Positions 4,274 through 48,357 of a DNA stretch of 64,000 bases are shown here, piece by piece. The position numbers and the translations under genes were made by a program. The notes beneath the pieces were generated by a model. That model was given only the letters and a program-made list of their open reading frames with translations, ran no database searches and was not told the origin of the DNA. The stretch's first letter is position 1. Every line of letters starts with the position of its first letter. This DNA comes from Octopus vulgaris (lineage: Eukaryota), in the NCBI GenBank assembly GCA_951406725.2, contig OX597817.1, positions 44,578,001 through 44,642,000 on the forward strand. The letters are read 5' to 3'.

Positions 4274-4316
4274 CCACTACAATCGTTTCTTGTCTTGATC
4301 GACAATCTTCAGGTGG
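4274..4316 (-). ncRNA. Type-I hammerhead ribozyme, intact core (family H2)
   Basis: Minus strand CCAC-CTGAAGA-TTGTC-GATCAA-GACAA-GAAA-CGATTG-TA-GTGG: stem I CCAC/GTGG, 5-bp stem II, near-palindromic stem III ACGATTGT, GUA cleavage triplet; lies in an approximately 250-bp island between TA tracts. Confidence 0.8.
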
Positions 4317-4350
4317 ACTTCAATAAGTCAGTTTCAAATTATATATATAT

Positions 4351-4503
4351 ATATAAATATATGAAAGTATGGAGCTGAACGACGAATTAACAAAATTTCT
4401 TTATTTTCGACATATGTTTCGAAGGCTGCATATTCCTAATATGTCGAAAATAAAGGAACTTTGTTAATTCGTCGTTCAGCTCCATTCTTTCATATATTTA
4501 TAT
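4351..4503. repeat. Inverted partial pseudo-LTR (approximately 65-bp-arm hairpin) at the 5' end of the PLE
   Basis: Arms 4351-4415 and 4439-4503 are reverse complements; the left arm and loop hold the 3' half of the HHR found complete at 31161-31257. Confidence 0.85.
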
Positions 4504-4764
4504 TTTTAAAATAAACATTCAGTGGTGGTGCCCAGGATGGCCGCGGCCTTCGGGCTAAAATATTTTTAAGGATTAAAGGATTTATACAAATTTCCACACG
4601 AAAGCACGTAATCTATGCCCTAGGCACGTAACTTCAACCGTGTTTTTTCTGATGTGAATTTGCTACCCAGGTATCGAATTATCCTTAATAAGATAATTCA
4701 TTCAACTACTCAAATATTCATATACAGCCTCCTTGAGATCCTGCTACCTTAACCGATACCGCAA

Positions 4765-7403
4765 ATGGAGTTGTTCGAGATTAACGCATCCCTTAAGGAC
4801 ATACCAATACCACCAAAAGAAACCTTCCTTAAGGAAATTGTTAACGAAACAAATGCATTCATCAACCGAATTAGATGGCTCGCTTTCTTCCATGATAATG
4901 AGGACATAAAACAGAACGGTACCGAAACATCTTCCAAATATAAGATGTTATTCAAGTCGAGGGAAACCCCTCCACCTAATCCCAGACTGAAGAAATTTGA
5001 GGACGACCTATGGGACATTGTAAGGAGCATTAAATTCCGTAAATCGCCCCTTAGGAATAAACACCTTAGATACCTCAACAAAGTCACCAAAGATATAAAC
5101 AGTTTAGACGCTATCCTGGTACAATCAGATAAAACCAGGAACACTTATAAGCTAGCAAAAAACCAGTATTTAGAAATGCTCAAGAAAGAAATACAGAAGA
5201 ATTACAGAACAACAAATAAGAATACACCCAGACAAGCCAACTTGGAAATTAAGAAAATCATGGAAACTTATGGATTACAAATGAAAACACAACCGCTGAA
5301 CCCAAGACAACCAAGATTCATCGTCAAGGACCATAAACCAAACTTTCACACCAATCCAGCATTAAGGCTCATATGCCCCTCTAGTTCCGACATCGGTTCC
5401 ATTAGTAAGTACATTTTAGATAAATACATATCTAGATTAATCAATAAGTTAAAACTCAACATATGGTCTAACTCCACTCAAGTCGTAGAGTGGTTTTCTT
5501 CTATTTCTAATAAAAACAGCACAAAATTCATTCAATTCGATATTTCTAGTTTCTACCCTTCGATCAACCCTAGTGTACTCAATAAGGCCCTATGGCATGC
5601 ACATAATAAGGCAGGCCTCCCAAGGGAGGAAATTAATATAAGTTTAGCGGCTAGAAAATCCTTCATACAGTTCGATGATAAGTTATGGGTCCGTAAGGTT
5701 ACCCCCAACACGTTCGATGTGCCAATGGGAAGCTCAGACAACGCCCAGATAGCCGATTTGGTCGGAATCTATATTCTCTATGAATTAGCTGACCAATTCC
5801 CGGACATCTGCGGCGGTCTGTATCGAGACGATTGTCTATTTTACCTACAGAATGCTCCGAACAGTATGATACAGAAGACTAAAAACAGATTAGCTGGATT
5901 TGTTAGCAGAATGGGCATGAGCATAGTTTTCGACGACGAACTAACTAAAGCCAACTTCTTAGATGTTACCCTAAATCTGCATAACAATTCTTACTTCCCT
6001 TACCATAAGCCTTCTACTAACCTTAAATATGTCAGCAATTTCAGTAACCATGCAAAAACTATCACCGATAATTTAGTTAAAAATATATCCTTAAGACTAT
6101 CAAATTTATCTGCGAATGTCGACATTTTAAAACAAAAAGTGGAATTTTATAATGCCGCCTTGTCAAAAGCCGGTTATAGGGATAAGGTATCATATATCGA
6201 CCCGGCCCATTCTAAACTAATATTTGCTTCTCGGGATAAGAAAACTAATAACAATAGAAATAATGTAATTAAGGATTTCAGCTCTAGCAACGTCGACACT
6301 AATATAATTAACAAAAATAATTTACGGACCAGAGGAGGCAATCGAAAACCAACACCAATTCTACAACACAGAAATACTCCCTTTAATGTAAATGTTAACA
6401 CTCTGAGCCATTCTAAGTAAAAAAAAACTATATCTGGTTTGTATTTCCTTTCGGGAAACAAATCAGGTCTAACCTCCCTGTACAGTTCCGTGAAGCCGTA
6501 GCTAGGAACTTTCCCAGGAATTCTAGGTATTACTCTACTATCATTTCGCATAAGGTGAGGATTGCATTCTCCAACACTAGCAATCTATCGCAGATAATTG
6601 CCTCCCATAATAATAAGCTGCTAAATAAGGACTCATCACCCAGGAGTAGCGACACTGCCCTTACCAATTCCAACCTAACATACAATAATAATAATAATAG
6701 AAATAGTATTGATATTAGCAACATCCATAGCAGCATTGGCGTTAATAATAGTAATAATGATATTAACATTAGCCGGATTATTAACAGTGGTGGTGTTAGT
6801 GGTAATAGTAACAGCATTTCTAATAACAGTTGTATTATTGATGATAACAATCACAGCATTCCTATAGTCAGAGAAATTGCCGACGATATTACAATTAATA
6901 GTAATGATAATAAGATGAATAGTATCGTGGCCAATGCTAGCTACAATATTTACACCTATCATAACAATAAAAACTCTGTCTTAGTATCGGAAGTTAACCC
7001 CAACAGATTAAAGTTCTTATCCCAAAATTCCAAAATTAGAAACACCATTTACCAGTGCAAAATTTCTTCTGGAACCGATGTCTTCTACATTGGAGCAACT
7101 TCTTCTAAATTAGCTCAAAGGATCTCCAATCATTATTCAACTTTCTGAGATAAGAGAAAACAACACAGCACGGAACTAAGTAAATTAGTTTAGCGTCTGA
7201 AGGACAGCAATACAACTTTCAAGCTGGAATGGTCCATATTGTCGGTGTCCTTTCCGTTTGATAAGGGCAGAAAACTTTGTGGCATCTGTAATTCCGAACT
7301 TTTTCATATTTTGTTCGCCAAAGTCCCTTTAATAAATACAATCGTCGAGAGGTCCTACAGGTGCATGCATTGGCAAATACACACCTTTCACTCATATGAA
7401 TAA
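4765..7403 (+). pseudogene. PLE reverse transcriptase/GIY-YIG endonuclease ORF, disrupted
   Basis: 551-aa open RT frame 4765-6420; frameshift at about 6415-6427 (A-run); continues in the 6555..7148 frame; in-frame TGA at 7146-7148 and TAG at 7191-7193; reads through STELSKLV*RLK...WSIL...CGICNSELFHIL...RCMHWQIHTFHSYE* to TAA 7401-7403. Confidence 0.88.
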
Positions 7404-7834
7404 TGATTAATATAGATAACACCTTGAATTTTAATTAATATAACTTCTTTTTTTATATATGTCACCCCCATAGTCATAAAATTTTTTTTATACTTTCAAA
7501 GAACTACTACCCAATCCAGTGAGGTATGTGTTGACTTAGTCCCTCTACCTTGCCCTCCTCTTTCTCTCTCTATTTCCCTTTTTCTATAGTAAGCACAATC
7601 AAACACACAGACACAAATCTCTCACCTCACCACTGTCTGTTTTCTGACATCTACCCATCCACATACACAATCACGCACACACATACACACACACACATTA
7701 ATGCAGTTATATACAGTCACACACACAGGCACTCATTCACAAAAGAAATTAACAAAATCCACCATTCATATGACCTGCACCCTTTGACCTTCCTATTCTT
7801 ATGCCTCTCTCCTCCAACTTCGTTTGAACTCTTT

Positions 7835-8042
7835 TGTGTGTCTGTGTTTGACCCCCCAACATCACTTGACAACCGATTCTGGTGTGTTTACGTCCCCGTA
7901 ACTTAGCGATTCGGCAAAAGAGATCGATACAATAAGTACCAGGCTTACAAAGAATAAGTCCTGGGGTCGATTTGCTCGACTAAATGCGGTGCTCCAGCAT
8001 GGCCACAATCAAATGACTGAAGCAAGTAAAAGAGTAAAGAGT
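7835..8042 (+). mobile_element. SINE family C, 3' half
   Basis: CCCCAACATCACTTGACAACCG...CTCCAGCATGGCCACAATCAAATGACTGAAGCAAGTAAAAGAG matches the tail of the intact family C copies. Confidence 0.85.
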
Positions 8043-46820: not shown

Positions 46821-46944
46821 GATAGGTAGATAGATAGGCAGGCAGAGGGACAGACAGCCAGATAGACAAAGAGACAAAATTGCAGAGAGACAGACTGTCA
46901 GACAGACAAATTTATCACCAGGCTTACAGACAATTAGAAAGTAC

Positions 46945-47070
46945 GATAGATAGATAGATAGATAGATAGATAGATAGATAGATAGATAGATAAATAGATA
47001 GATAGATAGATAGATAGATAGATAGATAGATAGATAGATAAATAGATAGATAGATAGATAGATAGATGGA
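46945..47070. repeat. (AGAT)n microsatellite
   Basis: Direct reading. Confidence 0.96.
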
Positions 47071-47662
47071 CAGGCAGATAATAGATTGAAATCAAAGTGT
47101 GTCATGACACACATTGTATTTGCACCAAATTCTCTTCATCATTTGTTATTGTCTGACATAAAGGAATAAAGGAAAGCTTCTTATAGACAGATAATGAGAC
47201 ACGAAAGACGGAAAGATAGCCATAAAGGTCGGAGCAAGGTTGGGAGGAATTATGTGGTGGTAGGGGTCAAATTAGAGATGATAATAATGATAATCATAAC
47301 TGAAGTACCTATTCTCTCTTTCACTTCTACCGTCACTTCGGCGTTGTCGATGAATTTCATCGCCATCCTCCTTTTCCTCCTTCTCCTCTTCCTACTTATC
47401 ATCATCATCATCTTCATTGCCATCATAATCACCACCACTAATATCACATTTGTGTTTATCACCATATCTATGTGAATATATCTATAGGAATATATGTATA
47501 TTATATATGTATGTATGTATGTATGTATGTATGTATGTATGTATGTATGTATGTATGTATGTATGTATGTATGTATGTATATATATATATATGTAGGTCC
47601 CGGGTTGAGTCGGGGTTAACCACAGTAAATAAGGTACTCAATACATAGCAGAGTAAAGCTCT

Positions 47663-47715
47663 GAGCTTCCTGATGATTTCTTTTGAATGAAACAGTTCTA
47701 GTCCTGTAGAAGCTC
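47663..47715 (+). ncRNA. Type-I hammerhead ribozyme, intact core (family H8)
   Basis: GAGCTTC-CTGATGA-TTTCTTTTGAAT-GAAA-CAG-TTCTAGTC-CTG-TA-GAAGCTC: perfect 7-bp stem I, stem III ACAG/CTGT, GUA triplet; in an approximately 130-bp island between (TATG)/(TA) tracts. Confidence 0.88.
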
Positions 47716-47767
47716 CTTCTATAATATATATATATATATATATATATATATATATATACATATATAA

Positions 47768-48357
47768 AAGCAAATATGTAACAAGGATGTCAAGGTATTA
47801 GTGCATTACGGCCGTTTCAGGCGACTCCATTTAATCGAACAATGCAAGCATCACGTCAATTCGAAATATACCCCCTCAGATTCATAAGACCATATAAGTT
47901 TCAGCATACGGAATACTTCATTACAATATTTTAGCAAATTTCGCATCAGAACTAGAGTCTAAAAGAATTAAATGCCTGTTGCTATTATTGTAGCAGAATG
48001 AACTTAGGGAGAAGATGCCCCAACTATAATTTAGAGTGGCAGGAGAGAAAAACAATGGGGGTAGGGATCATGAGATAGTAGCATAACTACATTTATCTAT
48101 CTCCTTATAAACATCCAAAGATCTACTGCATCTAGTATACTACGTCCACTAAGAATTAAATCTATTGGAAATTGACAGTTAAGTTCTAGCTGCCGAAGAT
48201 AAATTAATGAATGTCAGATACTCTCCAAACCCCATAATTTAGTATGGCCTTAAATTCGCTATGACTACAAAAAGGAACAAATCTGAGATGTTAGTAAGTT
48301 ACTGGTATATGCCCCAAAAGGGGTGACATAAACTATTTTATTATTATCAGTTAAAAG
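47768..48357 (-). mobile_element. PLE pLTR-like repeat (family H7), copy 2; degenerate HHR at 47802-47884
   Basis: Minus TGAAT-CTGAGGG-...GCCT-GAAA-CGGCCG-TA-ATGCA; palindromic ACGGCCGT; directly follows an RT relic on the same strand. Confidence 0.72.

Follow-up and report, generated by a model that had tools for sequence, protein, structure and literature searches.

Hammerhead motifs of Penelope-like elements in an Octopus vulgaris locus: stem III sequences are shared among families and probably serve dimer pairing

A double hammerhead was reportedly described by Forster in 1988 for newt satellite 2, and hammerhead variants of Penelope-like elements (PLEs) are said to cleave as dimers, going by the title of a study by Lunse, Weinberg and Breaker (RNA Biol 14:1499) and by the reviews that cite it. 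Here we analyze a stretch of 64,000 nucleotides from Octopus vulgaris (assembly GCA_951406725.2, contig OX597817.1, positions 44,578,001 to 44,642,000 of the forward strand; hereafter the window, in whose own coordinates all positions are given), which holds the end-pieces (pLTRs) of several PLE families, each with a small hammerhead motif. A single minimal hammerhead is reported as inactive, dimers as weakly active and a palindromic loop 3 as a consensus trait (PMC4209133), and the requirement for tandem copies has already been published (PMC4209133, PMC6765202). What function the hammerheads have in PLEs is described as an open question (PMC8557442, PMC11167929).

The window presents new instances of this known hammerhead trait. 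As an initial annotation of the same DNA had maintained, its sites are PLE-type hammerheads; self-complementarity of stem III is conserved in related families, and the dimer model was already in print (PMC4209133, PMC6765202). We consider it probable that they are PLE pLTR hammerheads, mostly solo and often decayed, which work as the published double hammerhead and in which stem specificity is a by-product of divergence. The same annotation had proposed that each family carries its own palindrome as a code for self-recognition. A selected code of this kind would, if true, represent a new layer of mobile-element competition and provide natural orthogonal ribozyme pairs, but as worded it is already contradicted.

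Stem III sequences within and beyond the window

A strict descriptor (exact CUGANGA, GAAAC..GUH and four Watson-Crick pairs in stem I) retrieved four intact type I hammerheads, at 4.3, 9.2, 31.2 and 47.7 kb, against none in 100 dinucleotide shuffles, and permitting one core change yielded five sites against a shuffle mean of 0.16. These four positions carry the full type I core (CUGANGA ... GAAA ... UH) together with both of its stems, I and II, and the copies at 0.17, 4.4, 10.2, 44.5, 45.1 and 47.8 kb each present at least one core or stem I defect (six of the ten sites). Self-comparison of the window by BLAST similarity distributes the ten sites among seven families, here termed A to G. Rfam hammerhead models applied to the whole window at gathering score gave no match. 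The stem II regions of families C, D and F (9211-9270, 31237-31184 and 47872-47819) extend over about 50-60 bases with inner hairpins, exceeding those of the published tables consulted, and standard descriptors may miss regions of such length. Single-strand folding of six motifs was not informative (z from -0.4 to -2.2).

Every stem III string quoted in the initial annotation is present at its site: ACGT at 174-177 (+) and 44472-44475 (+) in family A and at 10222-10219 (-) in family B, ACATATGT at 4417-4410 (-) in family D and 9274-9281 (+) in family C, ACATGT at 31180-31175 (-) in the 31.2 kb copy of family D, ACGATTGT at 4286-4279 (-) in family E, ACGGCCGT at 47815-47808 (-) in family F and the 16-base ACAGTTCTAGTCCTGT at 47692-47707 (+) in family G. 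With G·U pairs counted, stem III is self-complementary at eight of the ten sites that have one; the 45.1 kb copy fails, and the 47.7 kb site pairs with two 2x2 loops. The notion that each family has its own palindrome does not hold, since the seven families present five stem IIIs and four of them have one that is not unique. The families at 10.2 kb and at 0.17 and 44.5 kb show no BLAST similarity and yet both carry ACGT, and the same is true of the families at 9.2 kb and at 4.4 and 31.2 kb with respect to ACATATGT. The labels H1 and H5, to which ACGT had been assigned, were left undefined, but whichever ACGT sites were meant, the sequence occurs in two unrelated families.

The majority stem III of families D and E was established from four public runs, under three organism labels, whose contigs were aligned to 4100-4560 at 80% likeness, with differences of at least 5% recorded. 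In family E no alternative letter reached this level across 4264-4312 in the four runs, whereas 4259 and 4263 were variable, and the family therefore keeps ACGAUUGU as a G·U self-complementary stem, with a predicted duplex energy of -5.8 kcal/mol. In family D no 2-base deletion was recorded at 4410-4417, though deletions were recorded elsewhere, and hence the family majority is ACAUAUGU, identical to the family C site; loose contig ends at 4440 run on as in the 31.2 kb copy. Two candidate interpretations were rejected: that of ACGATTGT as a decayed palindrome, as family E retains it across copies, and that of ACATGT as the family D signature, as it is a minor variant at 31.2 kb. Position 4406, in the 3' strand of stem I, is polymorphic among family D copies (12-54% of depth in the four runs), a change that either creates a G·U pair or requires a compensatory partner beyond the aligned stretch.

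A metagenome scan returned 77 related loci. A core scan of these loci (250,304 bases) that is blind to stem III, and that superseded an earlier scan scoring stem III complementarity, located 60 cores on the sense strand and none on the antisense strand. Clustering at 85% protein identity produced 65 clusters, of which the 42 with a motif are the families used here, the other 23 having no motif that passes the scan. Exactly half of these relatives (21 of 42) have a stem III identical to that of another family, and 21 of 41 still do if locus L072, whose motif possibly comes from a neighbouring element, is excluded. A second hammerhead of locus L043, at 2761, was dropped as part of another element. 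Both this one (ACGT) and the L072 motif at 319 (ACGCGT) are short-palindrome hammerheads that probably belong to other elements and lie just upstream of Hydra-clade open reading frames (ORFs), which hints at nested PLE insertions.

Two stem IIIs were scored as compatible if their hetero-duplex, in register, falls within 1 kcal/mol of the weaker homo-duplex, a threshold of our own choosing. On this basis 137 of the 861 pairs of relatives are compatible (the in-register energies replacing free-register ones, which gave 141), and 32 of the 42 families have at least one such partner. The hetero-duplex is predicted to be stronger than both homo-duplexes in 20 of the 861 pairs, three of which are also compatible in stem I. 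Fourteen families from assemblies that share recurrent elements at 99-100% were taken as residents of one host; 24 of their 91 pairs are compatible against a random expectation of 14.4 (probability of a value as low as that observed, 0.98), 19 of 80 against 53 of 383 when only pairs below 60% reverse transcriptase (RT) identity are considered, and four of 91 against an expected 1.9 when both stems are required. Presumed co-resident families thus show no displacement, and the claim that they would dimerise only with themselves through stem III is not supported. Published tables show the same pattern: by hand count, 29 of the 56 motifs listed in a machine-read table read ACGU and eight of 11 multi-family species have a stem III common to several families (PMC4209133 Fig. 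S3), and nine of 14 Hydra magnipapillata families have a non-unique one, with an identical 9-mer in five (PMC8557442 File S2).

There are observations that would suit selection of a private palindrome for each co-resident family, namely the five different stem IIIs in the window, the 28 distinct ones in the 42 relatives and a hetero-duplex predicted to be weaker than the weaker homo-duplex for every window pair with different stem IIIs; nor did we find a publication proposing or testing such a code in the literature searched, whose coverage leaves out most subscription papers. Set against the shared stems of window and relatives, the many partners within 1 kcal/mol, the undiminished compatibility of presumed co-residents and the hetero-duplexes that exceed both homo-duplexes, this explanation is highly improbable. 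The palindromes are not family-specific identity tags, and a code residing in stem III is not supported.

Pairing between copies and its alternatives

Stem III measures 8-10 bases in 41 of the 42 relatives and comprises 10 strict palindromes, 21 perfect pairs of arms around one unpaired base, four cases with G·U and seven with a mismatch. As dimer-only we counted every pair whose enclosed loop would have fewer than 3 bases. Across the 42 families 51 of 62 such pairs are Watson-Crick (55 counting G·U), and by class 12 of 20, 21 of 22 and 18 of 20 are so, against shuffled means of 6.0, 11.3 and 7.6. The covariation score was reached by none of 500 shuffles, which ignore relatedness, and lies above all slid controls. 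On a quick tree read by eye, six supported sister groups (L069/L048, L040/L049, L026/L039, L023/L070, L057/L064 and L027+L043/L041) differ by a both-sided change of a dimer-only pair, and L019 breaks one such pair. The compensatory change across families for which the initial annotation had proposed to look is hence present in the Hydra clade, in favor of dimer pairing and at pairs formed only between two copies. This fresh covariation in relatives supports dimer pairing of Hydra-clade hammerheads, which are listed as canonical, and indicates selection for it.

In the mechanism that we favor, two copies, ideally in one tandem transcript, would pair their stem IIIs antiparallel, and each core would cut the GUH site of its partner. 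Self-complementarity of stem III would be kept because homodimer formation requires it, while its sequence could drift by compensatory change among the few AC...GU solutions; such a small solution set would explain why unrelated families are often alike in stem III. The cut base of a type I hammerhead lies between the 3' strands of stems III and I and connects them; hence, if the GAAA side of one copy pairs with the GU side of another, the stem I strand of the second must pair with that of the first. By this topology both stems would be exchanged in the dimer, a point that the initial annotation had omitted, and most family specificity probably resides in stem I, as a by-product of divergence rather than a selected code. 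Stem I would then filter more strictly than stem III, being compatible in 27 of the 861 pairs of relatives, and both stems are compatible in 18; among pairs at 70-85% identity, 15 of 19 are still compatible in stem I, as gradual divergence predicts. Window families that are alike in stem III (A with B, C with D) form zero to one stem I pairs across families (taking the 44.5 kb copy for A), and orthogonality of the window families is predicted without need of a special code. The stem I strands of L026, L041 and L073 are themselves palindromic (TCGA, TTAA and TGCA).

It could be argued that stems I and III together constitute a selected two-part key, which would keep co-active PLE families from cutting each other's copies or those embedded in the host, and let the ribozyme sense a tandem full-length transcript. 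Between any two of the seven window families, stem I or stem III is predicted not to fit, and few pairs of relatives are compatible in both; nevertheless, we regard such selection as decidedly unlikely.

The claim that most stem IIIs are too short to close within one molecule applies strictly to ACGT and nearly so to ACATGT (+6.0 kcal/mol), but not to the 8-mers, which can close with 2 bp and a tetraloop at a predicted +2.4 kcal/mol, nor to the 47.7 kb stem, which closes alone at -1.4 kcal/mol. It may be proposed that stem IIIs of 8-16 bases act mainly as monomer hairpins with the help of an element protein, that the ACGU type alone is an obligate dimer and that solo copies are not silent. Cleavage of axolotl monomers reaches 6-22% within an hour, a coral retrozyme monomer cleaves at about 0.8 per minute, and invertebrate retrozyme hammerheads with 2 bp and a tetraloop cleave well as a monomeric repeat (PMC7229834). 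The Anolis PLE hammerhead needs its own protein, and no reads end at its cut site (PMC11167929). Inactivity of single motifs is, in view of these axolotl, coral and Anolis results, not general, and central mismatches are indeed common in 10-base stems, where eight of 20 innermost pairs are not Watson-Crick. Nonetheless, the energy of the isolated hairpin is positive in all 42 relatives (1.3 to 6.0), and the pair that flanks the lone middle base of a 9-base stem, although impossible in a monomer, is Watson-Crick in 21 of 22 cases and covaries. Efficient monomers, moreover, have loop-loop contacts that are reportedly absent from minimal PLE motifs. Taken together, these data make a mainly monomeric mode of action unlikely. 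As for solo pLTR copies, supposed to be mostly silent in host introns, a 2026 preprint reports tandem-type retrozymes to be depleted from Xenopus introns (bioRxiv 10.64898/2026.07.22.740005), which neither proves nor refutes their silence.

The palindrome might also be a signal that acts at the level of DNA or through protein binding (for the dimeric PLE protein or for template switching), with catalysis being incidental. This would agree with the beginning of the 4.4 kb fold-back inside stem III, and with the insertion of the Anolis element in vitro without hammerhead cleavage (PMC11167929). The fold-back junction is, however, one observation; the G·U self-complementarity of family E copies and of four of the 42 relatives fits RNA pairing and not a DNA palindrome, and conservation of core and stems is confined to the sense strand. 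We thus give a DNA or protein signal very little credence.

Several considerations weigh against the dimer interpretation as applied to the window. The link to PLEs is made by sequence for family D only, and by architecture for families A, B, C, E and G; for family F it is made through a decayed frame that ends in GLN. The many-copy comparison covers families D and E only, and its contigs lose rare variants and have depths that do not equate to copy number. Co-residence was deduced from recurring elements, and close relatives in the set inflate its compatibility. At 30-39% identity the 42 relatives are remote, and the window protein forms a long branch, so their covariation is evidence at the level of the clade and not for the window's own families. 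Finally, strict palindromes account for only 10 of the 42 relatives and seven have a mismatch, and monomer folding may therefore contribute. The motifs, the family links, the shared stem IIIs and the covariation in relatives are observations; dimer use by the window families, the energies and any cellular activity are inferred. Natural pairs of families suited to a clean comparison of cross-cleavage have been identified: the 9.2 kb site with family D, which agree in stem III but differ in stem I, and L024 with L044 or L015 with L028, in which stem I is compatible and the central bases are complementary.

The individual sites and their genomic setting

Family D is represented by two copies, at 4.4 and 31.2 kb, which are 93% identical. 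The inverted pLTR piece at 4351..4440 (-) has only the 3' part of the hammerhead, with stem III (ACAUAUGU, 4417-4410), the cut site at 4409 and the 3' strand of stem I; its CUGANGA core is missing owing to the fold-back of this copy at 4440. The sense arm, at 4439..4764 (+), begins within stem III, has its cut site at 4445 and continues into the leader of the PLE ORF; the start of the fold-back junction (4439-4445) falls within the palindrome of stem III, 7 bases ahead of the sense-arm cut site. The whole hammerhead at 31169..31249 (-) presents a long stem II, a UUUUC/GAAAA stem I and a stem III (ACAUGU) that is 2 bases shorter. When this copy is folded as a single strand, the bases around GAAA pair with those past the cut site (31167-31190 (-)), a fold that might constitute an off-state of the monomer. 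Just upstream of it, 31281-31391 is a near-perfect inverted repeat of 110 bases.

The family D ORF (4765..7400 (+)) codes for a reverse transcriptase with a GIY-YIG-like C-terminal part and is broken twice, by a frame change close to 6.41 kb and by a stop (7146-7148). It has 681 homologues, with profile matches extending to position 704, and the sole named homologue of the protein, from Argonauta hians, is 37% identical; a Pfam search of the ORF returned no named match. Compared by eye, its motifs match those of the Hydra-clade proteins in the PMC8557442 supplement, and the clade was named on this basis. Considering also its (TA)n surroundings and the hammerhead in its terminal repeat, the element appears to be a Hydra-clade PLE. 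A decayed fragment of a Hydra-like reverse transcriptase lies at 46425..46826 (+; profile i-E 8.6e-18). None of the other six families has a contiguous PLE ORF in the window, and families E and G have a stem II architecture in common with the Hydra-clade relatives. A search of viral contigs revealed no relative of the ORF and no match to two of the window hammerhead motifs.

The intact type I hammerhead of family E (4274..4316 (-)) has a CCAC/GUGG stem I, its core at 4312-4306 and a stem III (ACGAUUGU, 4286-4279 (-)) that is self-complementary through G·U, with the cut predicted after 4278. That of family C (9200..9286 (+)), whose hammerhead part occurs once in the window, has an intact core, a long stem II, a GCGG/CCGC stem I and ACAUAUGU as stem III (9274-9281). 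The minimal hammerhead of family B (10213..10258 (-)) has a G8>A core, a GACAC/GUGUU stem I and ACGU at 10222-10219. In family A, the remnant at 148..182 (+), with stem III ACGT and a broken ACGACGA core, is 87% identical to the hammerhead at 44446..44480 (+), which has an intact core and ACGU at 44472-44475 but a C-A mismatch that breaks the first stem I pair; the motif is gone from a third copy at 52.2 kb. In two of the three copies (152-158, 44450-44456 and about 52240 (-)) core position 4 is C, so that CCGACGA may be the usual core of family A and CpG decay may account for the canonical one at 44.5 kb. C also occupies this position in family F at 45.1 kb.

Family F comprises two remnants on the same strand, 2.7 kb apart and both with an altered core. 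The one at 47802..47884 (-) has an A9>G core, a long stem II, two stem I pairs and stem III ACGGCCGU (47815-47808); its sister at 45094..45180 (-), 83% identical and absent from the initial annotation, has core CCGAGGA and a stem III (ACGACUGU) that is not self-complementary, the sequence ACGACTGT being non-palindromic. The family G hammerhead (47663..47715 (+)) has an intact core, a 7-bp stem I and a 16-base stem III that can form either a 4-bp hairpin of its own or a duplex with a second copy, and for which ACAGGACTAGTCCTGT is proposed as the ancestor. A pattern search with this motif gave three bacterial matches, about the chance level by estimate in 596 billion bases, and none in the 77 related loci.

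The window is DNA of animal type with 36% GC, in which microsatellites, remnants of transposons and SINE-like repeats abound. A Pfam search of 88 further ORFs returned one transposase fragment and no host gene, covering 88 of the 94 ORFs left by low-complexity filtering, the other six being already scanned or overlapping a Tc1 gene. A Tc1/mariner transposase lies in two frames at 11003-12058 (-), and the transposase fragment from the Pfam search at 21412-21666. A hammerhead look-alike at 15562-15600 (+) has core CTGTTGA, a GAGC/GCTC stem II as in family A and stem III ATGT, and belongs to a repeat with a second occurrence at 9001-9105; it may represent a further family of the ACGT type whose core deviates. 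Relaxed-core candidates at 14.9, 17.2, 55.0 and 56.7 kb were set aside on failing the stem I test.

Comparison with described hammerheads

The published minimal hammerheads of PLEs resemble those of the window in their type I fold, the extra base after A9, the short stem I and the palindromic stem III, and also in consisting mostly of solo dispersed copies, in the presence of inverted copies near a PLE ORF, in the proposed action as dimers and in the prevalence of ACGU (PMC4209133). They differ in that families C, D and F of the window have a stem II of about 50-60 bases and family G a stem III of 16, and no window motif appears in the 56-row table of that work. In newt satellite 2 and in the double hammerheads of axolotl retrozymes, as in the dimer model advocated here, a weak stem III is rescued when two copies within the same transcript pair (PMC7229834, PMC6155905, PMC6466107). 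These motifs, however, lie in short tandem repeats and have contacts between loops 1 and 2, whereas the window copies are dispersed, with no adjacent pair of intact hammerheads of the same family.

The Hydra-clade PLEs described by Craig et al. in 2021 are like the window element in their ORF motifs, (TA)n surroundings and C-terminal endonuclease region (PMC8557442 File S2), and like the window families in having AC...GU stem IIIs of 8-10 bases that are common to several families within one genome. The hammerhead of the octopus family Hydra-1_oBim is unlike every window motif, and Penelope-4_HM and Penelope-8_HM have an identical core-proximal stem I and complementary central bases. The same file draws most Hydra stems with loops of 1-3 bases, for which the covariation reported here suggests dimer pairing instead.

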